Shown here: in pieces, positions 3,846 to 64,000 of the stretch
How the letters are laid out: each line of letters starts with the position of its first letter
Position numbering within the stretch: position 1 is the first letter of the stretch
From: Escherichia phage BYEP01
DNA length: 64,000 nucleotides
Reading direction: 5' to 3' (one strand)
Sequence record: OR757453.1
Notes under the pieces: generated by a model
What the model was told of the DNA's origin: nothing
Seen by the model: the letters and a program-made list of their open reading frames with translations, nothing else
The model's database searches: none
Translations under genes and position numbers: made by a program

Positions 3846-4308
3846 AGTAGCAAAACATTATTCAATAGAATTTATGTCTAAAGAAGGTAAATCAGTAAAT
3901 ACACTTGATAAAGAGTGCTCATTAATTATTCCTTTAGCAGAAAATCCGGATCTTTTAATTAAAGATATAAAAGAAAGAAAATATCCAGAAAATGTTATTC
4001 TAATTATAAAGCATACTGAAGATATTTTGCAGAATACTGATTCACCGTTTTCTTCTTCTGAAGCTTTAACTATTAAAGGCTATAAAAGAGCTCATGAATA
4101 TGGTCTTTTTGACCTGTTTGAAGACGATAAAGTTAAATTAGCGAGTCAACCTTCTAAAAGTAAAACATTCATTATTGAAGATATTAAAGATATAAATGCA
4201 TTTGTTAAGATGGTCTGGGCTCATTTTGATGTTGGACTACGCTGGAGAATGTCCGAAGAAGAAAGAAAGATTATTGAAACTAATCGTTATTTTGGTTTTT
4301 ATCGCTAG
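3838..4308 (+). CDS. hypothetical protein
   Basis: 156 aa ORF. Confidence 0.4.
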
Positions 4309-4316
4309 GAATTAAT

Positions 4317-4499
4317 ATGGATTTATTTGAGATGTTAGAAGATAATCATTCTACGAATATCCAGAATGATTCTAGTGATTATAAGAAAGAGTACCGTATA
4401 GTATTACAGAATTATGGAATTGAAGCCCCAGATGCTCTTCTAGAAGAACTAGCTTCATACCATCTTGACCCTCCGCCTTGGGCTCCCTGGGCAAAATAA
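4317..4499 (+). CDS. hypothetical protein
   Basis: 60 aa ORF. Confidence 0.3.
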   Translation: MDLFEMLEDNHSTNIQNDSSDYKKEYRIVLQNYGIEAPDALLEELASYHLDPPPWAPWAK

Positions 4500-4507
4500 T
4501 TCAAAAA

Positions 4508-4540
4508 GTTGTTTACTTTCCTTCCTAACAATGATATGAT
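4508..4540 (+). promoter_or_regulatory. early promoter
   Basis: GTTGTTTAC then TATGAT after about 17 nt. Confidence 0.55.
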
Positions 4541-4566
4541 AGCTTCTGAAGTATATGGAGGCTATC

Positions 4567-5190
4567 ATGATTATTAATCTTGCAGATGTTGAACAGTTAT
4601 CTATAAAAGCTGAAAGCGTTGATTTTCAATATGATATGTATAAAAAGGTCTGTGAAAAATTTACTGACTTTGAACAGTCAGTTCTTTGGCAATGCATGGA
4701 AGCCAAAAAGAATGAAGCTCTTCATCAGCAGTTGAATAAAATCGTTAAAAAGCATTTAACTAAATCGCCTTATCAGCTATATCGTGGTATATCAAAATCG
4801 ACAAAAGAACTCATTAAAGATTTACAAGTCGGAGAAGTGTTTTCAACGAACAGAGTAGATTCATTTACTACTAGTTTGCACACAGCATGTGGTTTTTCTT
4901 ATGTTGAGTATTTCACTGAAATAATATTTCGCTTAAAAACTGATAAAGCTTTTAATTATTCTGACCATATCAGCGATATTATACTTTCTTCTCCTAATAC
5001 TGAGTTTAAGTATACATATGAAGATACTGATGGATTAGATTCAGAACGTACTGATAACTTAATGATGATTGTGCGTGAACAAGAATGGATGATTCCAATT
5101 GGAAAGTATAAAATAACTTCTATTTCAAAAGAAAAATTACACGATTCATTTGGAACATTTAAAGTGTATGATATTGAGGTAGTTGAATGA
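4567..5190 (+). CDS. modB: ADP-ribosyltransferase ModB
   Basis: 207 aa from second ATG; R / S-T-x / E-Q-E ART motifs (YRG, STN, EQEWMIP). Confidence 0.7.
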   Translation: MIINLADVEQLSIKAESVDFQYDMYKKVCEKFTDFEQSVLWQCMEAKKNEALHQQLNKIVKKHLTKSPYQLYRGISKSTKELIKDLQVGEVFSTNRVDSFTTSLHTACGFSYVEYFTEIIFRLKTDKAFNYSDHISDIILSSPNTEFKYTYEDTDGLDSERTDNLMMIVREQEWMIPIGKYKITSISKEKLHDSFGTFKVYDIEVVE

Positions 5191-5789
5191 AATATTCAGC
5201 AATGCAATTAAAAGATTTTAAAATCAAATCAATGGATGCATCGGTGCGTGCTTCTATTCGTGAAGAATTACTTTCTGAAGGATTTAATTTATCTGAAATT
5301 GAACTTTTAATTCATTGTATTACTAATAAGCCAGACGATCATTCTTGGTTAAATGAAATAATCAAATCTCGTTTGGTTCCAAACGATAAACCTCTTTGGA
5401 GAGGTGTTCCAGTTGAGACTAAACAGGTGTTAAATCAAGGAATTGATATTATTACATTCGATAAAGTAGTATCAGCTTCATATGATAAAAATATAGCTCT
5501 GCATTTTGCTTCTGGATTAGAATACAACACACAAGTTATTTTTGAATTCAAAGCTCCTATGGTATTTAATTTTCAGGAGTATGCTATAAAAGCTCTACGT
5601 TGTAAAGAATATAGTCCGAGTTTTAAATTTCCAGATAGCCATCGCTATCGTAATATGGAATTAGTTTCAGATGAACAGGAAGTAATGATACCAGCTGGAA
5701 GTGTATTTAGAATTGCGGATAGATATGAATATAAAAAGTATTCAACATACACTATCTATACTCTTGATTTTGAAGGATTTAATCTATAA
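5187..5789 (+). CDS. modA: ADP-ribosyltransferase ModA
   Basis: 200 aa; ART motifs (WRG, SAS, EQEVMIP); paralog of the upstream ORF. Confidence 0.7.
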   Translation: MKYSAMQLKDFKIKSMDASVRASIREELLSEGFNLSEIELLIHCITNKPDDHSWLNEIIKSRLVPNDKPLWRGVPVETKQVLNQGIDIITFDKVVSASYDKNIALHFASGLEYNTQVIFEFKAPMVFNFQEYAIKALRCKEYSPSFKFPDSHRYRNMELVSDEQEVMIPAGSVFRIADRYEYKKYSTYTIYTLDFEGFNL

Positions 5790-5845
5790 TGGAAGGACTT
5801 AGATTCATTATACAATGAAAGTTTTAAAGCATTTTTCATAAAGTT

Positions 5846-5877
5846 GTTTACAAGCTGAAGTAAAAATGTTATAGTAT
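5846..5877 (+). promoter_or_regulatory. early promoter
   Basis: GTTTAC ... TATAGTAT. Confidence 0.55.
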
Positions 5878-5904
5878 AAGTAGTTAACCGTCCGTGAGAA
5901 AAAT

Positions 5905-6654
5905 ATGAAACTGTCTAAAAATCAAATTCGTAAAATTACACGTCGTCTAGAGCACACTCAGGCATCTGCTAAAAGACGCTCTAAAGATTTTAACTTAGAC
6001 TTCAATTACATTAAGAACATTTTAGATCAGAAAGTTTGCGCTTACTCGGGAGAACCTTTTGATAATCGTATTGAAGGAGAGAAATTATCATTAGAACGTT
6101 TTAATAACGATATCGGCTACATTAAAGGTAATGTTATCCCAGTTAAGAAAAAATATAACACGGCTCGTTCTGATTTAACATTAGAAGAACTTATTGAGAA
6201 ACGTGACGCTATTGCAAGACGTATTGCTAATCCTTCTGCTCGTAAAGTAGAGAAACTTAATCTCGACGAGAAGAAATGGGCCCAAATTAAAAAGGTTTAT
6301 GGTACTATTTTAAAAATCCGAGCAAAGCGTGAAAATCGTGTTAAGCATATGGCGAACATGATGAAAAATCAACCTTTATCTAACGAATCTAAACTTAAAA
6401 TTGTTGCTTTGAAAGCACGCATTAATGGCTCACATCAAGCAGAAGGCCATGAACTTACTAAACTCAACGTTCTTCTTAAAGGCTCTGATTGGAAAACTAA
6501 AACTAAATTAACTGACGCTGAATCGCTTTTCGATACATATGATAAAGTTATCAAAGGTCTGCAACGTTTTGAAAAGATTGGTTTCATTGGTAAATTAAAA
6601 TTGAAACGTGGCTTACCACTTAGTGCATCATTATTCCAACTGATTAAAGGTTAA
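5905..6654 (+). CDS. srd: Srd-like protein (sigma-related early protein)
   Basis: 249 aa ORF between modA and dda.1/dda; length and position fit T4 srd. Confidence 0.5.
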   Translation: MKLSKNQIRKITRRLEHTQASAKRRSKDFNLDFNYIKNILDQKVCAYSGEPFDNRIEGEKLSLERFNNDIGYIKGNVIPVKKKYNTARSDLTLEELIEKRDAIARRIANPSARKVEKLNLDEKKWAQIKKVYGTILKIRAKRENRVKHMANMMKNQPLSNESKLKIVALKARINGSHQAEGHELTKLNVLLKGSDWKTKTKLTDAESLFDTYDKVIKGLQRFEKIGFIGKLKLKRGLPLSASLFQLIKG

Positions 6655-6656
6655 TT

Positions 6657-6968
6657 ATGGTTTATGTATATGCAATAGTTTATCGAGATATGGAAGGATT
6701 TACTGTCCCGGTTCCGCTTGATGAGCATCGTCCTGCAGTATTTTTTAGAAAGGATATTGCAGATAAAGTTTTCGATACTTTGAAAACACAGTATAAAACA
6801 GATTTAAAAATGGGAGTTCTAAGAATGGTCGAAACTCCGCGTAAGTTCTGGTTTAATAAGCTTGAAATGAAACACGTTAAACTAGATGCGGAGACGCAAA
6901 GATTATATCGGCGAATTTTAGATACTGGGCGTATTGTTAGTATACCAATTGCAGGGAATTTACGATGA
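6657..6968 (+). CDS. hypothetical protein (dda.1 position)
   Basis: 103 aa ORF. Confidence 0.4.
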   Translation: MVYVYAIVYRDMEGFTVPVPLDEHRPAVFFRKDIADKVFDTLKTQYKTDLKMGVLRMVETPRKFWFNKLEMKHVKLDAETQRLYRRILDTGRIVSIPIAGNLR

Positions 6969-8284
6969 CATTTGATGATTTGACAGAAGGCCAGAAAAAT
7001 GCCTTTAACATCGTTATGAGGGCTATTAAAGAAAAGAAACATCATGTAACTATTAATGGACCTGCTGGTACTGGTAAAACTACTCTTACTAAGTTCATCA
7101 TTGAAGCCTTAATATCTACGGGCGAAACTGGCATTATTTTAGCAGCTCCTACTCATGCAGCTAAAAAGATTCTTTCAAAACTGTCAGGGAAAGAAGCGAG
7201 TACTATTCACAGTATTCTTAAAATTAACCCAGTAACATACGAAGAAAACGTTCTTTTTGAACAAAAAGAAGTACCGGATTTGGCTAAATGCAGAGTATTA
7301 ATCTGCGACGAAGTGTCAATGTACGATAGAAAGCTATTTAAAATTCTGCTTTCAACTATCCCGCCGTGGTGTACTATAATTGGAATAGGCGATAATAAGC
7401 AAATTAGACCTGTTGACCCAGGAGAAAACACTGCTTATATTAGTCCATTCTTTACACATAAAGATTTTTATCAGTGTGAACTCACTGAAGTTAAACGCAG
7501 TAATGCTCCTATTATTGATGTAGCTACTGATGTTCGTAATGGTAAGTGGATTTATGATAAAATTGTTGACGGACATGGAGTACGTGGATTTACTGGTGAT
7601 ACCGCTTTACGCGATTTTATGGTAAATTATTTTTCAATCGTAAAATCACTAGATGATTTGTTTGAAAATCGCGTAATGGCATTTACGAATAAATCTGTTG
7701 ATAAGTTAAATAGCATTATTCGTAAAAAGATTTTTGAAACTGATAAAGATTTTATTGTCGGTGAAATTATTGTAATGCAGGAACCATTAATTAAAACATA
7801 TAAAATTGATGGAAAGCCTGTGTCAGAAATTATTTTTAATAACGGACAATTAGTTCGTATTATAGAAGCAGAGTATACATCGACGTTTGTTAAAGCTCGT
7901 GGTGTTCCTGGAGAATATCTAATTCGTCATTGGGATTTAACAGTAGAAACTTACGGCGATGATGAATATTATCGTGAAAAGATTAAAATAATTTCATCTG
8001 ATGAAGAGCTATATAAGTTTAACTTATTTTTAGGTAAAACGGCAGAAACTTATAAGAACTGGAATAAAGGCGGAAAAGCTCCGTGGAGTGATTTTTGGGA
8101 TGCTAAATCACAGTTCAGTAAAGTGAAAGCACTTCCTGCATCAACATTCCATAAAGCTCAGGGTATGTCTGTAGACCGTGCTTTCATTTATACGCCTTGT
8201 ATTCATTATGCAGATGCTGAATTGGCCCAACAACTTCTTTATGTTGGTGTAACACGTGGTCGTTATGATGTATTTTATGTATGA
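6965..8284 (+). CDS. dda: Dda DNA helicase (SF1B)
   Basis: 439 aa; Walker A GPAGTGKTT; matches T4 Dda length. Confidence 0.9.
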   Translation: MTFDDLTEGQKNAFNIVMRAIKEKKHHVTINGPAGTGKTTLTKFIIEALISTGETGIILAAPTHAAKKILSKLSGKEASTIHSILKINPVTYEENVLFEQKEVPDLAKCRVLICDEVSMYDRKLFKILLSTIPPWCTIIGIGDNKQIRPVDPGENTAYISPFFTHKDFYQCELTEVKRSNAPIIDVATDVRNGKWIYDKIVDGHGVRGFTGDTALRDFMVNYFSIVKSLDDLFENRVMAFTNKSVDKLNSIIRKKIFETDKDFIVGEIIVMQEPLIKTYKIDGKPVSEIIFNNGQLVRIIEAEYTSTFVKARGVPGEYLIRHWDLTVETYGDDEYYREKIKIISSDEELYKFNLFLGKTAETYKNWNKGGKAPWSDFWDAKSQFSKVKALPASTFHKAQGMSVDRAFIYTPCIHYADAELAQQLLYVGVTRGRYDVFYV

Positions 8285-49303: not shown

Positions 49304-49357
49304 GTTTACAAGTCCCTCATGTTGTGTTACAGTAGTCTTACTGACATAACATGAGGA
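49304..49357 (+). promoter_or_regulatory. early promoter within a long imperfect inverted repeat; second copy at 62898..62951
   Basis: GTTTACAAGTCCCTCATGTTGTGTTACAGTAGTCTTACTGACATAACATGAGGA. Confidence 0.55.
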
Positions 49358-58522: not shown

Positions 58523-58788
58523 TGTTTGTCGTTCACACTATTTATGAAAATGAAGGTAATACTACACGTGATTACGGTCACGTAAATCAATTTTTTAGAT
58601 GCAATCCAGAATTCCGAGCTCAAAAAGACGAACGAATTTTTAAAAAATGTGTAGAGCAAGGTTTCATTTACGTCAAGCACTGGATGCAAGGAAATAAAGT
58701 TAGAACTACATATCATAAGTCTTTGCCTGAGCTTAATGATGAATTGATTTATAATAGAGCTGTAAACCAAACTCTGAAGGATGAATAA
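58522..58788 (+). CDS. hypothetical protein
   Basis: 88 aa ORF. Confidence 0.4.
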   Translation: MFVVHTIYENEGNTTRDYGHVNQFFRCNPEFRAQKDERIFKKCVEQGFIYVKHWMQGNKVRTTYHKSLPELNDELIYNRAVNQTLKDE

Positions 58789-60251
58789 TGATTCTTAAAA
58801 TTCTGAATGAAATAGCATCTATTGGTTCAACTAAGCAGAAGCAAGCAATTCTTGAAAAGAATAAAGATAATGAATTGCTTAAACGAGTATATCGTCTGAC
58901 TTATTCTCGTGGGTTGCAGTATTATATCAAGAAATGGCCTAAACCTGGTATTGCTACCCAGAGTTTTGGAATGCTGACCATTATCGATATGCTTGACTTC
59001 ATTGAATTCACGTTAGCTACTCGGAAATTGACTGGAAATGCTGCAATTGAGGAATTGACTGGATATATCACCGATGGTAAAAAGGATGATGTTGAAGTTT
59101 TGCGTCGAGTTATGATGCGAGACCTTGAATGCGGTGCTTCAGTATCTATTGCAAACAAAGTTTGGCCAGGTTTAATTCCTGAACAACCTCAAATGCTGGC
59201 AAGTTCTTATGATGAAAAAGGCATTAGTAAGAATATCAAGTTTCCAGCTTTTGCACAGTTAAAAGCAGATGGAGCTCGGTGTTTTGCTGAAGTCCGAGGT
59301 GATGAATTAGATGATGTTCGTCTTTTATCACGAGCTGGTAATGAATATCTAGGATTAGATCTTCTTAAGGAAGAATTAATCAAAATGACTGCTGAAGCCC
59401 GCCAGATTCATCCAGAAGGTGTGTTAATTGATGGCGAATTGGTATACCATGAGCAAGTTAAAAAGGAACCAGAAGGACTAGATTTTCTTTTTGATGCTTA
59501 TCCTGAAATTAGTAAAGCTAAAGAATTCGCCGAAGTAGCGGAATCTCGTACTACTTCTAATGGAATCGCCAATAAATCCTTAAAAGGAACCATTTCTGAA
59601 AAAGAAGCTCAATGTATGAAGTTTCAGGTCTGGGATTATGTCCCGTTGGTAGAAATATACGGTCTTCCGGCGTTTCGTTTAAAATATGATGTACGTTTTT
59701 CTAAACTAGAACAAATGACATCAGGATATGATAAAGTAATTTTAATTGAAAACCAGGTAGTAAATAACCTAGATGAAGCTAAGGTAATTTATAAAAAGTA
59801 TATTGACCAAGGTCTTGAAGGTATTATTCTCAAAAATATCGATGGATTATGGGAAAATGCTCGTTCAAAAAATCTCTATAAATTTAAAGAAGTAATTGAT
59901 GTTGATTTAAAAATTGTAGGAATTTATCCTCACCGTAAAGACCCTACTAAAGCAGGTGGATTTATTCTTGAGTCAGAGTGTGGAAAAATTAAGGTAAATG
60001 CTGGTTCAGGCTTAAAAGATAAAGCCGGTGTAAAATCGCATGAACTTGACCGTACTCGCATTATGGAAAACCAAAATTATTATATTGGAAAAATTCTAGA
60101 GTGCGAATGCAATGGTTGGTTAAAATCTGATGGCCGCACTGATTACGTTAAATTATTTCTTCCGATTGCGATTCGTTTACGTGAAGATAAAACTAAAGCT
60201 AATACGTTCGAAGATGTATTTGGCGATTTTCATGAGGTAACTGGTCTATGA
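58788..60251 (+). CDS. 30: ATP-dependent DNA ligase gp30
   Basis: 487 aa; KADGAR adenylation motif. Confidence 0.9.
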   Translation: MILKILNEIASIGSTKQKQAILEKNKDNELLKRVYRLTYSRGLQYYIKKWPKPGIATQSFGMLTIIDMLDFIEFTLATRKLTGNAAIEELTGYITDGKKDDVEVLRRVMMRDLECGASVSIANKVWPGLIPEQPQMLASSYDEKGISKNIKFPAFAQLKADGARCFAEVRGDELDDVRLLSRAGNEYLGLDLLKEELIKMTAEARQIHPEGVLIDGELVYHEQVKKEPEGLDFLFDAYPEISKAKEFAEVAESRTTSNGIANKSLKGTISEKEAQCMKFQVWDYVPLVEIYGLPAFRLKYDVRFSKLEQMTSGYDKVILIENQVVNNLDEAKVIYKKYIDQGLEGIILKNIDGLWENARSKNLYKFKEVIDVDLKIVGIYPHRKDPTKAGGFILESECGKIKVNAGSGLKDKAGVKSHELDRTRIMENQNYYIGKILECECNGWLKSDGRTDYVKLFLPIAIRLREDKTKANTFEDVFGDFHEVTGL

Positions 60252-60436
60252 AAGCTTACTTAGAAACAATTGTCGTGGCTCAAAAAGAAGGTGGAGATGT
60301 TTCTACTTCTGTATCACAAGTCATTCTCGAATTTGTAGATGCATACGCTTATAATAAATTTACAGAAACATTTGATGCTTATGAAAAAGGTCCAAAGTTT
60401 GAAATATATCGTACTCTCTTACCTATAGATTATTAA
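60248..60436 (+). CDS. hypothetical protein
   Basis: 62 aa ORF. Confidence 0.35.
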   Translation: MKAYLETIVVAQKEGGDVSTSVSQVILEFVDAYAYNKFTETFDAYEKGPKFEIYRTLLPIDY

Positions 60437-60456
60437 AGGCCTTCGGGCCTTTAATT
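60435..60456 (+). terminator. UUCG-loop hairpin terminator
   Basis: AAAGGCC-TTCG-GGCCTTT then AATTTTAT. Confidence 0.65.
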
Positions 60457-60457
60457 T

Positions 60458-60465
60458 TATAAATA
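60458..60465 (+). promoter_or_regulatory. late promoter TATAAATA upstream of alt
   Basis: exact TATAAATA about 25 nt upstream of the alt start. Confidence 0.55.
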
Positions 60466-60488
60466 GAATAAACACTAGAGAGGATATG

Positions 60489-62537
60489 ATGGAACTAATT
60501 ACAGAATTATTTGACGAAGATACTACTCTTCCGATTACAAACTTAAATCCAAAGAAGAAAATACCACAAATTTTTTCAGTTCATGTTGATGACGCAATTG
60601 AACAACCAGGCTTTCGTTTATGTACCTATACATCTGGAGGTGATACTAATCGTGATTTAAAGATGGGCGATAAAATGATGCACATTGTTCCTTTTACATT
60701 AACTGCTAAAGGTTCAATTGCTAAATTGAAAGGTCTTGGTCCAAGCCCAATTAATTATATCAATTCAGTTTTTACTGTTGCAATGCAAACAATGCGTCAG
60801 TATAAAATTGATGCCTGCATGCTTCGTATTCTTAAGTCTAAAACCGCTGGTCAAGCTCGACAAATTCAAGTTATTGCTGATAGACTTATCCGTAGTCGTT
60901 CAGGTGGCAGATACGTCCTTCTTAAGGAACTCTGGGATTATGATAAAAAGTATGCATATATTCTTATACATCGCAAAAATGTATCACTAGAAGACATTCC
61001 AGGAGTTCCGGAAATTAGTACCGAGCTCTTTACTAAAGTTGAATCGAAGGTCGGTGATGTTTATATCAATAAAGATACTGGAGCTCAAGTAACTAAAAAT
61101 GAGGCAATTGCAGCATCTATTGCGCAAGAAAACGATAAACGTTCTGACCAAGCTGTAATCGTTAAAGTTAAAATTTCCCGTAGAGCAATTGCACAAAGTC
61201 AGTCATTGGAATCTTCTAGATTTGAAACACCGATGTTTCAAAAATTTGAGGCTTCAGCGGCAGAATTAAATAAACCAGCGGACGCGCCTTTAATTTCTGA
61301 TTCTAATGAATTAACGGTAATTTCTACTTCAGGATTTGCACTAGAGAATGCTCTTAATAGTGTTACAGCTGGGATGGCATTCAGAGAAGCTTCTATAATT
61401 CCTGAAGATAAAGAATCTGATGTTAATGCAGAAATAAAAAATAAAGCTTTAGAAAGATTACGAAAAGAATCTATTACTTCAATAAAAACTTTAGAAACTA
61501 TTGCTTCTATCGTCGATGATACTTTAGAAAAATATAAAGGTGCTTGGTTTGAAAGAAATATTAACAGACATTCGCATTTAAACCAAGATGCTGCAAATGA
61601 GTTAGTACAAAATTCTTGGAATGCAATAAAAACAAAGATTATTCGAAGAGAATTACGTGGATATGCTCTTACCGCTGGATGGTCATTACATCCTATAGTC
61701 GAAAATAAAGATTCATCTAAATACACACCAGCGCAAAAACGCGGAATTCGTGAATATGTAGGTTCAGGATATGTAGACATAAATAATGCTCTTTTGGGAT
61801 TATATAATCCAGATGAGCGTACAAGTATTTTAACAGCACCTGAAATAGAACAAGCCATTGATAATTTAGATTCAGCCTTTAAAAATGGTGAACGATTACC
61901 AAAAGGTATTACTTTGTATCGTTCACAACGAATGTTACCTTCAATATATGAAGCAATGGTAAAAAATCGAGTTTTTTATTTTAGAAACTTTGTGTCAACA
62001 TCATTATATCCAAATATTTTTGGTACTTGGATGACTGATTCATCTATAGGTGTTTTACCAGACGAAAAGCGTCTAAGTGTTTCTATTGATAAAACTGATG
62101 AAGGGCTTGTTAATTCTAGCGATAATTTAGTCGGAATTGGATGGGTTATTACTGGGGCTGATAAGGTCAATGTTGTTTTACCCGGTGGAAGTTTAGCGCC
62201 TTCAAATGAAATGGAAGTCATTTTGCCACGTGGATTAATGGTCAAAGTTAATAAAATAACCGATGCATCTTACAACGATGGAACAGTTAGAACTAACAAC
62301 AAGCTTATTCAAGCTGAAGTTATGACTACAGAAGAACTCACCGAATCGGTAATTTATGACGGTGACCGTTTAATGGAAACTGGTGAATTGGTTACAATGA
62401 CAGGTGATATAGAAGATAGAGTTGACTTTGCATCATTTGTTTCATCAAATGTTAAACAGAAAGTAGAATCATCTCTTGGAATTATTGCGTCTTGCATAGA
62501 TATTGCAAACATGCCTTACAAGTTCGTTCAAGGATAA
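60489..62537 (+). CDS. alt: ADP-ribosyltransferase Alt
   Basis: 682 aa from second ATG; matches T4 Alt length and N-terminus. Confidence 0.85.
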   Translation: MELITELFDEDTTLPITNLNPKKKIPQIFSVHVDDAIEQPGFRLCTYTSGGDTNRDLKMGDKMMHIVPFTLTAKGSIAKLKGLGPSPINYINSVFTVAMQTMRQYKIDACMLRILKSKTAGQARQIQVIADRLIRSRSGGRYVLLKELWDYDKKYAYILIHRKNVSLEDIPGVPEISTELFTKVESKVGDVYINKDTGAQVTKNEAIAASIAQENDKRSDQAVIVKVKISRRAIAQSQSLESSRFETPMFQKFEASAAELNKPADAPLISDSNELTVISTSGFALENALNSVTAGMAFREASIIPEDKESDVNAEIKNKALERLRKESITSIKTLETIASIVDDTLEKYKGAWFERNINRHSHLNQDAANELVQNSWNAIKTKIIRRELRGYALTAGWSLHPIVENKDSSKYTPAQKRGIREYVGSGYVDINNALLGLYNPDERTSILTAPEIEQAIDNLDSAFKNGERLPKGITLYRSQRMLPSIYEAMVKNRVFYFRNFVSTSLYPNIFGTWMTDSSIGVLPDEKRLSVSIDKTDEGLVNSSDNLVGIGWVITGADKVNVVLPGGSLAPSNEMEVILPRGLMVKVNKITDASYNDGTVRTNNKLIQAEVMTTEELTESVIYDGDRLMETGELVTMTGDIEDRVDFASFVSSNVKQKVESSLGIIASCIDIANMPYKFVQG

Positions 62538-62540
62538 ATC

Positions 62541-62926
62541 ATGGAACTTATTACATAATTATTTGACGGCGCTTCGGCGCCGGTTGTTAACTTAAATCCT
62601 AAGCATAAAATACCACAAATTTTTGCTATTCAAGCCGGCGAAGAAAGCGTGCTTCCTGGATTTAGATTTTGTACATACACCTCTGGCGGTGATACAGATA
62701 AAACGTTAAACCAGGCGACAAAATGATGCATATCGTAATGATAGGTGTTAATGAGAAACTATCATTAGTTAAGCTTAAAAACTTGGGTGGAAATCCAATT
62801 GGTGTCATTAATGCTGTTTTTGATACTGCTCTTCAAACAATGAAACAGTATAAAATCGACGCATGCCTATTACGCGTACTAAAAAGTTCAAAATGTAGTT
62901 TACAAGTCCCTCGTGTTGTGTTATAG
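62541..62926 (+). pseudogene. decayed partial duplicate of the alt 5' region
   Basis: DNA homology to alt codons 1-130; nonsense at codon 6 (MELIT*), at least one frameshift; residual 67-aa ORF 62723..62926. Confidence 0.7.
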
Positions 62927-62951
62927 TAGTCTTACTGACATAACATGAGGA
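62898..62951 (+). promoter_or_regulatory. early promoter, second copy of the 49304..49357 element
   Basis: about 52 of 54 nt identical to the element upstream of alc. Confidence 0.55.
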
Positions 62952-62958
62952 ACACAAA

Positions 62959-63249
62959 ATGAAATCTTCTTTACGCTTTTTAGGTCAAGAACTTGTAGTT
63001 GAAGGCGTTATTCCTGCTGATAATGCTTTTAATGAAGCAGTTTATGATGAATTTATCAAAATTTTCGGAACAGATAAAAAGTTTGGAATTTTTCCTTCTG
63101 AAAATTTTTCAAAGCCAGAACAGACTGAAAGTATTTTTCAGGGTGTAGTAACAGGTAAATTTGAGTCAGAAGCTCCGGTAAAAATTGAAGTTTATATTGA
63201 AGACAGTTTAGTTGCTTCAGTTGCTGCTTTCATTTCATTCCGTAAATAA
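62959..63249 (+). CDS. hypothetical protein
   Basis: 96 aa ORF. Confidence 0.4.
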   Translation: MKSSLRFLGQELVVEGVIPADNAFNEAVYDEFIKIFGTDKKFGIFPSENFSKPEQTESIFQGVVTGKFESEAPVKIEVYIEDSLVASVAAFISFRK

Positions 63250-63256
63250 AAATATG

Positions 63257-63274
63257 GGGACCGAAAGGTCCCCG
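63257..63274. terminator. hairpin between convergent genes
   Basis: GGGGACC-GAAA-GGTCCCC; T-rich flank on the minus strand. Confidence 0.6.
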
Positions 63275-63321
63275 TTGTTATATTGCTCCTAATATTTTAC
63301 TCTGCGAATTGACAATCCCTG

Positions 63322-64000
63322 TCATAGTATACTAATATTTGAAATGCTTCCTGAGGTTCCTCCTAGTCTACTAAGTCGTGAAAGCGAATTAGATAGTCCA
63401 GTAACACCTCCACTATTTCCGAGAACGCTTTGAATACCATTTATAGCAGCAGATTCAAGCCATTCAAGCGCAGCTTGCCTATCAACTGCTCCAGCCTGCA
63501 TCACTCTGTACGCAAAAGTAACATCAAATGTAGTTATTTGGTTATCTCCATCATATGATAGCTCAGGAGCGCTCACTGATATTGGAATGCATCCGGTGAA
63601 CATCACCGCAGTATGAGGCAATCCATTGCGAGAATGAAGATTAACCTGAATATCTGCCTCGACATCTTGTGGCAAAGCACGTAATCCAGTTACTGGGTCT
63701 TGAACGGAGTTAACCCAGTCTTGCATTGCACGATAGTTACAAGCTTCTGAATCCATTCTAAATGAAATAACCAAAGGGTCTAATTCTCTCCCAGTTATAC
63801 GAATATTAGGAGAATTATAGTTCCAGTCAGTTTCATAGGATAATCTATTCTCTGGCATTTTTACAGAATATATCATCAATCCAGATGAGTTATATGCCAT
63901 GTTAAAGAAGTCAATTAAATATGTACCAACCGTAAATGAGCCTAATAAACTTTGAACTGTGCGTTGACTCATGGCACCAATAAGATATTTACTGACTCCT
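63322..64000 (-). CDS. baseplate / tail-tube family structural protein (gp54/gp48-like), 5' end beyond window
   Basis: frame remains open upstream of Met at 63972 to the window edge; C-terminal region resembles the tail-tube fold ending; Gly/Ser-rich tail. Confidence 0.45.
   Translation of the reverse strand, partial: GVSKYLIGAMSQRTVQSLLGSFTVGTYLIDFFNMAYNSSGLMIYSVKMPENRLSYETDWNYNSPNIRITGRELDPLVISFRMDSEACNYRAMQDWVNSVQDPVTGLRALPQDVEADIQVNLHSRNGLPHTAVMFTGCIPISVSAPELSYDGDNQITTFDVTFAYRVMQAGAVDRQAALEWLESAAINGIQSVLGNSGGVTGLSNSLSRLSRLGGTSGSISNISIL

Follow-up and report, generated by a model that had tools for sequence, protein, structure and literature searches.

The DNA downstream of alt in Escherichia phage BYEP01 is very probably the decaying 5′ stump of a second full-length alt paralog

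Introduction

What is the DNA that separates alt from alt.-3 in T4-like phages? In T4 the place is taken by two short open reading frames, alt.-1 (NP_049810) and alt.-2 (NP_049809), and the locus is therefore already known; its annotation as a duplicate of alt dates back more than 20 years. The T4 RefSeq note interprets the pair as an old copy of the front part of alt that received a stop codon, and Nolan et al. 2006 counted alt.-1 and alt.-2 among the paralogous duplications of alt (PMC1524935). A sequence-only reading of the window, by which we mean the whole 64,000-nucleotide stretch of Escherichia phage BYEP01 (OR757453.1), likewise described a decayed partial duplicate of the alt 5′ region. 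The question is whether only the front of alt was ever copied here, or whether a complete second gene once occupied this position and was lost.

Results

The locus in the window

A megablast search with positions 62400–63300 returned 502 phage records at 90–100% identity, nearly all of them Tequatroviruses of Escherichia, Shigella and Yersinia, and the window is that of a Tequatrovirus, a T4-like phage. The gene order lig, alt.1, alt, remnant, alt.-3 and gene 54 matches that of T4, with the remnant lying on the same strand as alt and starting 3 nt past its stop (Table 1). By its sequence the remnant corresponds to T4 alt.-1 plus most of alt.-2. The alt product contains Pfam PF03496 at residues 374–614 (E 9e-35) and is 98.5% identical to T4 Alt. 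The motif TATAAATA upstream of alt is one that we take, from established T4 knowledge, to be a late-promoter motif. The possibility that alt.-3 is the 3′ end of a broken paralog was considered and rejected, with a best E of 0.056 in BLASTP of Alt.-3 against Alt and with Alt.-3 belonging to a family of its own.

Table 1. Features of the alt region and of the related cassette in the window
Feature	Position	Strand	Evidence or remark
Promoter/leader/SD cassette, second copy	49304–49357	+	52/54 nt identical to 62898–62951; between rnlA and alc
DNA ligase gene	58788–60251		
alt.1	60248–60436		
C(UUCG)G terminator hairpin after alt.1	60435–60452	+	fold -14.2 kcal/mol, z -3.3; terminator annotated here in relatives
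Motif TATAAATA upstream of alt	60458–60465	+	
alt	60489–62537	+	intact, 682 aa, packaged ADP-ribosyltransferase, T4 allele type
AltB remnant (very probable)	62541–62898	+	AltB codons 1–115, last 11 nt and original stop TAG (62896–62898)
TAA nonsense, codon 6	62556–62558	+	GAA in T4 and intact AltB; leaves only MELIT of the alt.-1 frame
C(UUCG)G tetraloop hairpin, CGGCGC-UUCG-GCGCCG	62567–62582	+	fold -12.8 kcal/mol; centroid structure, ensemble frequency 0.77
Frameshift site	62700–62703	+	AAAA, against AAAAA in intact AltB
Residual 67-aa ORF, equivalent of T4 alt.-2	62723–62926	+	AltB codons 62–115, then out-of-frame read-through into the promoter
Deletion junction, the one copy of the direct repeat CTAAAAAGT (9 bp) that was kept	62879–62887	+	alignment to RB18 and intact alleles
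Early promoter, leader and SD for alt.-3	62898–62951	+	promoter scan 10/12, extended -10
alt.-3 (DUF5498)	62959–63249	+	intact; Pfam PF17602, E 1e-64
GAAA-loop terminator, bidirectional, between alt.-3 and gene 54	63254–63275		
gene 54		opposite to alt genes	beyond the terminator at 63254–63275

Similarity to alt and its limits

Local DNA alignment of 60489–60900 with 62541–62930 gave a score of 114, with 229 of the 317 aligned bases identical, whereas 500 shuffles gave a mean of 20.2 (sd 2.5) and a maximum of 33. The homology between the segment and the 5′ end of alt, from which the sequence-only reading had started, is thus real. Its extent had been put too high, at about 390 nt or 130 codons; it stops near 62885, after approximately 345 nt or 115–116 codons. 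The bases at 62888–62898 are the 11 nt with which the ancestral paralog ended, an early promoter occupies the DNA from 62898 on, and the pairing of alt with the segment that MAFFT proposes past column ~355 is spurious. Every feature which that reading had listed was confirmed in its place, although the interpretation of some of them has changed, as described below.

An intact paralog at the same position in relatives

It had also been suggested that relatives be searched for an intact paralog at this position, and the answer is a clear yes. RB18, UFV-AREG1, RB32, APTC-EC-2A, T6, GADU22 and fPS-65 all have a gene of 2,058 nt that begins 3 nt past the alt stop, contains no internal stop in any of the seven, and is followed by alt.-3. 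Its 685-aa product, an Alt-like ADP-ribosyltransferase for which we coined the name AltB, shows the Pfam ADP-ribosyltransferase domain (PF03496) at residues 416–620 and is of the R-S-E type. AltB is colinear with Alt along its whole length, with ~41% protein identity over residues 1–683. Pairwise dN/dS among the seven intact alleles is 0.02–0.07, which signifies strong purifying selection, and taken together with the seven open frames this indicates that AltB is a working gene in those phages.

When compared by tblastn, the remnant and residues 1–116 of RB18 AltB share 87–98% protein identity, while the value against Alt is 56–61%; the segment is therefore the front of AltB and was not newly copied from the resident alt. 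The DNA comparison gives the same contrast, the first 345 nt of the remnant being 91–99% identical to full-length paralogs and ~70% identical to the resident alt. In blastn with the segment, the majority of records match bases 1–347 only, beneath a gene annotated as 'Alt-like RNA polymerase ADP-ribosyltransferase'. The start, the hairpin, the flanks, the terminal ...AAAATGTAG and the downstream promoter are shared between the remnant and the paralogs of RB18, RB32, T6 and UFV-AREG1. A past duplication does lie behind this decayed relative of alt, as had been proposed, but it was not a duplication of the 5′ region of the resident alt; the segment is in all likelihood what is left of a full-length paralog.

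A partial duplication of the first ~120–130 codons of alt followed by divergence, which is how both the sequence-only reading and the T4 GenBank note explain the segment, accords with a copy that begins 3 nt past the alt stop, has the same MELITE start and is homologous to the 5′ part of alt only. We nevertheless regard it as very improbable. The ~70% DNA identity to the resident alt compares with 94–99% to the 5′ end of the full-length paralog (407 records), the homology ends at a 9-bp repeat junction beyond which lie the terminal 11 nt of the paralog with its stop, and outgroup phages have two long paralogs. In Moonvirus CF1 there are two alt paralogs, the second of which is split in two, and a full-length alt duplicate was noted for phage 44RR (PMC1524935).

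Two allele classes of alt itself were observed, a T4-type of 682 aa and an RB18-type of 697 aa, which are ~71% identical overall; their ends are held in common while the middle and the catalytic region are divergent (window 60489–62537 versus RB18 locus 3904–5997). The AltB stump adjoins both classes, and the combination of an RB18-type alt with the stump occurs in F25, F26 and one IMG/VR contig.

The 1,699-bp deletion

Global alignment of the window to RB18 revealed one gap of 1,699 bp (RB18 locus 6340–8038), falling between 62878 and 62879 of the window, and one single-base gap. At the left edge of the missing segment most intact alleles read GTACTAAAAAGTAAA, the right edge reads GTCTAAAAAGTTCAAAATGTAG, and the window reads GTACTAAAAAGTTCAAAATGTAG. 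From these edge sequences the deletion is seen to lie between two direct copies of CTAAAAAGT, one of which was kept. Such a deletion would have arisen at the 9-bp repeat, through slippage during replication or through illegitimate recombination. The lost segment comprises AltB codons 116–682, including the whole catalytic domain, and was removed out of frame. A Pfam search with the 128-aa product of a remnant of this type gave no match, the ART catalytic domain of the Alt/VIP2 clade, with its R, S-T-S and E-x-E motifs, being absent. Because 1,699 is not divisible by three, the reading frame passes the AltB stop TAG and ends 28 nt later. A single origin of the deletion is assumed here; AV120 has the deletion on a different AltB haplotype.

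Did the window lose 1.7 kb, or did the others gain it? The RB32 GenBank note records an 'apparent insertion in alt.-2', by which the long RB-type gene would have arisen through insertion of ~1.7 kb into a short alt.-2 and the window would be ancestral. However, the 1,699 bp continue the frame, are colinear with Alt (41%, residues 1–683), carry the ART domain and are under purifying selection, and the exact rebuilding of a homologous enzyme by an insertion is implausible. The T4 form, moreover, also needs a frameshift and reads past the old stop. We find an insertion hardly conceivable. Deletion is to be preferred because the 1.7 kb are colinear with Alt and selectively constrained, because the outgroups Moonvirus CF1 and 44RR have two long paralogs, and because the remnant alleles fall inside the 5′ diversity that intact AltB genes display.

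Distribution among phage records

A 51-nt junction probe was contiguous in 90 of 497 records and split in the rest, and the 1,699-bp segment was present in 407 of the 497, nearly at full length in 402; the junction class (90) and the segment class (407) sum to the whole set of 497. These counts, like those that follow, are rough, as the GenBank phage collection includes GenBank/RefSeq duplicates and many T4 laboratory stocks. A 49-nt probe with the TAA codon matched exactly in 44 of 491 records and with one mismatch in 443. By means of a chimeric probe, in which a piece with the TAA was joined to a piece of the junction, at least 35 TAA records were found to carry the deletion, and no TAA record without the deletion was among the matches listed. 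A scan of IMG/VR viral contigs for the exact junction yielded 2 contigs only.

Later lesions in the remnant

The nonsense codon that had been reported at codon 6 is present, the frame reading ATG GAA CTT ATT ACA TAA (MELIT-stop). With this TAA the open 61-codon alt.-1 frame of T4 is absent from the window. The allele is common to F26, BYEP02, ACG-C40, HY03, SG1 and others, and the change from GAA to TAA is found in the window and in about half of the deletion carriers. A frameshift had been noticed as well, and it can be assigned to the loss of one A from a run of five. The shortened run leads to a TGA stop (62724–62726) that overlaps the ATG at 62723, and the resulting ATGA is the split between alt.-1 and alt.-2. 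The residual ORF of 67 aa was recovered as described. The likeness to T4 alt.-1/alt.-2 is close in every respect (same position, 98% DNA identity, same junction, same A4 frameshift and same ATGA overlap), the difference being the change from GAA to TAA at codon 6 in the window. Mean column identity of the segment with T4, e11/2, F25 and F26 is 98%.

Phage N2 (locus 1010–1396) has the deletion without the frameshift or the nonsense codon, and thus contains one ORF of 128 aa; it is apparently an intermediate state in which only the deletion has occurred. The A5 run is retained in the deletion carriers N2, SG1 and AV120, and in SG1 and AV120 it accompanies the TAA. As all four combinations of TAA or GAA with A4 or A5 exist among the aligned alleles, the order of the later lesions is not fixed, and recombination, recurrent homopolymer slippage or sequencing error may be responsible.

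Further indels have accumulated in the remnants. The spacing of the two pieces in the chimeric search varies (368, 376, 377, 378 and 384 nt). F1 has a 9-nt deletion, HY03 a 7-nt tandem duplication, and single bases are lost in a T run of PD112 and in an A run of F25. Six distinct disabling or indel lesions were counted among 13 remnants, and none in the same 345 nt of 7 intact genes. Variants private to the remnants are nonsynonymous or nonsense versus synonymous in a ratio of 9:4, compared with 2:32 for variants that are shared or occur in intact genes (Fisher's exact p = 2e-5 without one gene-conversion patch, p = 0.002 with the patch included), in what is a small sample of 13 remnants and 7 intact genes. 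At the level of sequence, this difference supports a relaxed constraint on the remnant.

The annotation of HY03 (locus 10–1006) shows of alt itself just a 645-nt 3′ fragment, preceded by an ORF on the opposite strand; this may be an artefact of the annotation, or the locus may have been disrupted a second time.

Are the short products kept as proteins?

The stump has a Shine-Dalgarno sequence, AAGGA, 6 nt before the ATG, and with so good a site the peptides are probably translated in T4-type phages. For T4 alt.-1 and alt.-2, RNA was detected and classed as 'middle' but protein was not (PMC9697503 Table S2); this proteomic non-detection, concerning products of 61 and 67 aa, is weak negative evidence. 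T4 Alt loses its six N-terminal residues through prohead-protease cleavage at ITE-6 (PMC5694885). The nonsense codon of the window replaces Glu6, the counterpart of that cleavage residue.

The small products could have been kept as proteins, either Alt.-1 and Alt.-2 or a 128-aa form of the N2 type with a gp21-cleavable MELITE propeptide, with possible roles as a fragment targeted to the capsid or in the modulation of Alt packaging. Besides the good ribosome-binding site, the ATGA overlap is typical of translational coupling in T4, the stump persists in 90 records, and the T4 stump keeps the ITE motif at which the Alt propeptide is cut (PMC5694885). In the window, however, alt.-1 is left with only 5 residues, and relatives have alt.-2 with frameshifting 1- and 7-nt indels and a 9-nt deletion. 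The 9:4 ratio of nonsynonymous or nonsense to synonymous variants and the missing T4 protein speak against such a role as well. So does the site of truncation, because residue 116 falls within a conserved block that Alt and AltB share to approximately residue 250. A function of these products as proteins is accordingly improbable in our judgment. A single-sequence AlphaFold model of Alt residues 1–270 reached a mean pLDDT of 43, and solved structures gave only weak matches, to the ART domain of CdtA-type toxins, with none for the N-terminal region of Alt.

The UUCG hairpin

The sequence GGCGCTTCGGCGCC is present, as had been pointed out, within a textbook hairpin that lies 26 nt into the stump and has a UUCG loop closed by a C-G pair on a G+C-rich stem. 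This hairpin is not a substitution acquired during decay, because intact AltB genes carry the same sequence. It is identical in the 7 intact AltB genes and the 13 remnants, codes for G-A-S-A-P in AltB, and is ancestral AltB coding sequence that predates the pseudogene. No terminator was called at 62567–62582, and there is no U-run 3′ of the hairpin.

The first ~100 nt of the stump, the hairpin included, are almost invariant in ~490 records. This invariance is inseparable from a wider trough of low diversity that extends from -150 to +100 of the alt/AltB boundary. Across 20 aligned loci, the trough at the alt 3′ and AltB 5′ ends shows 2–5 segregating sites per 50 nt, as against 13–26 further upstream in alt. 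Different inverted repeats were also observed ~26–35 nt after the start in alt (60516–60531), in AltB (62567–62582) and in the AltB of Moonvirus CF1 (locus 4476–4490); CF1 alt has no clear inverted repeat at the equivalent place, and the pattern could be due to chance.

Could the hairpin have been retained for a role of the RNA in cis, for instance as a 3′ stabiliser of the late alt message, a processing barrier, a partial terminator or a control of initiation? The hairpin is invariant in ~490 records and, with a fold energy of -12.8 kcal/mol, very stable considering the 35% GC of the genome; weaker hairpins occur in the corresponding place of alt and of the Moonvirus CF1 AltB, and the terminator that precedes alt is a hairpin of similar UUCG type. 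Nevertheless, it is followed by no U-run, is coding in intact AltB, has no clear equivalent in CF1 alt, and gave no credible match in an Rfam scan of 60200–63400, and its invariance does not stand out from the trough in diversity around it. Retention for such a role appears rather unlikely. A broader proposal, which we consider unlikely, is that the invariant first ~100 nt of the stump (RBS, MELITE start and hairpin) influence the late alt transcript in cis, either as a 3′ stabiliser or processing barrier or through termination and re-initiation at the alt stop. If true, this would explain why that piece is kept by every independent decay state while the rest erodes.

The 3′ end: the alt.-3 early promoter and its repeat

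The alt.-3 promoter consists of GTTTACA at -35 (62898–62904), a 17-nt spacer, a TGT-TATAGT -10 (62922–27) and the SD GAGGA. With TGTTATAGT following the -35 element and the 17-nt spacer, it is a strong early promoter of the sigma-70 type, and the annotations of fPS-65 and Lutter also put an early promoter here. Both the transcript and the protein of T4 alt.-3 belong to the early class (PMC9697503 Table S2), which a promoter at 62898 fits; statements on T4 promoter classes rest here on the omics paper, the annotations of relatives and general knowledge. Because the promoter begins at 62898, the last ten codons (30 nt) of the 67-aa ORF 'alt.-2' are promoter DNA read out of frame.

The 54-nt cassette of promoter, leader and SD occurs twice in the window, in direct orientation, upstream of alt.-3 and upstream of alc. 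No terminator-like hairpin was called on the + strand of 62860–62960. The arrangement resembles the PeSL cassettes of T4-type phages (PMC2839356, PMC4122927) in that a near-identical early-promoter cassette is found at two gene boundaries. It differs from them in that a stem-loop or terminator is not seen in the 54-nt repeat of the window, and the deletion junction uses the 9-bp coding repeat and not the cassette.

Discussion

We are highly confident that the segment downstream of alt is a unitary pseudogene and represents the 5′ stump of AltB, a full-length paralog that stood in tandem with alt. An intact ortholog lies at the same position in relatives, disabling lesions have occurred in several lineages, and the constraint on the remnant is relaxed. 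The order of alt, AltB 3 bases on, an early promoter and alt.-3 would be ancestral and is kept in most Tequatroviruses. An old duplication of the whole gene would have been followed, in a lineage that includes T4 and the window, by a recent 1,699-bp deletion at CTAAAAAGT. Stepwise decay would then have set in, with the change from A5 to A4 accidentally creating the TGA/ATG overlap that is annotated as alt.-1/alt.-2, the TAA arising in some phages, and indels of 1, 7 and 9 nt in others. The stump would have no protein function today and would serve as a transcribed spacer on the read-through message of alt. The sole functional element under the 67-aa ORF would be the early promoter of alt.-3 at its 3′ end. 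The object is an ordinary decaying pseudogene that had already been annotated, and it is the history that comparison refines.

The full-length paralog has been recorded under other labels, 'alt.-2' in RB32 and 'alt_1' in UFV-AREG1, from which the window differs in missing the 1,699 bp and the PF03496 domain and in having the frameshift and the nonsense codon. Two Alt-like paralogs of phage 6phi13 were remarked upon in a 2026 paper (PMC13600099). T4 Alt has the MELITE propeptide and 56–61% identity over the 116 residues in common with the remnant, yet it is an intact, catalytic and different paralog.

Deletion at the short repeat is not the only change that the pair has undergone. In ECML-134 (locus 4501–6561) there is a single hybrid gene whose first ~450 nt are 96–99% identical to alt and the rest 91–99% to AltB; judged by this mosaic, it is a product of unequal crossover between the tandem paralogs that removed one gene unit. 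In phage sutha (locus 6588–6704), only the last ~117 nt of AltB follow alt, and these are annotated as a tiny 'Alt-like' CDS. The AltB of APTC-EC-2A contains a patch of ~52 nt identical to its own alt, over the region of the A5 run (locus 2436–2500 versus 384–448), which indicates gene conversion between the tandem paralogs. Within one genus, the alt/AltB pair thus illustrates the change of tandem paralogs by deletion, unequal crossing-over and gene conversion.

For the annotation of T4, the correction is that the duplication was old and of the whole gene, that the truncation is a recent deletion of 1.7 kb, and that the short ORFs are by-products of decay. The alt.-1 and alt.-2 labels in ~90 records ('hypothetical protein', 'ADP-ribosyltransferase') can be merged into one pseudogene, in which the end of 'alt.-2' is the early promoter of alt.-3. 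T4 with its 'three ARTs' is the model phage for ADP-ribosylation, while most Tequatroviruses have a fourth, uncharacterised ART, which is probably packaged in the capsid. Our comparison has largely shown that T4 and the phage studied here are natural nulls for this fourth Alt-like ADP-ribosyltransferase, which is kept by ~80% of their sequenced close relatives.
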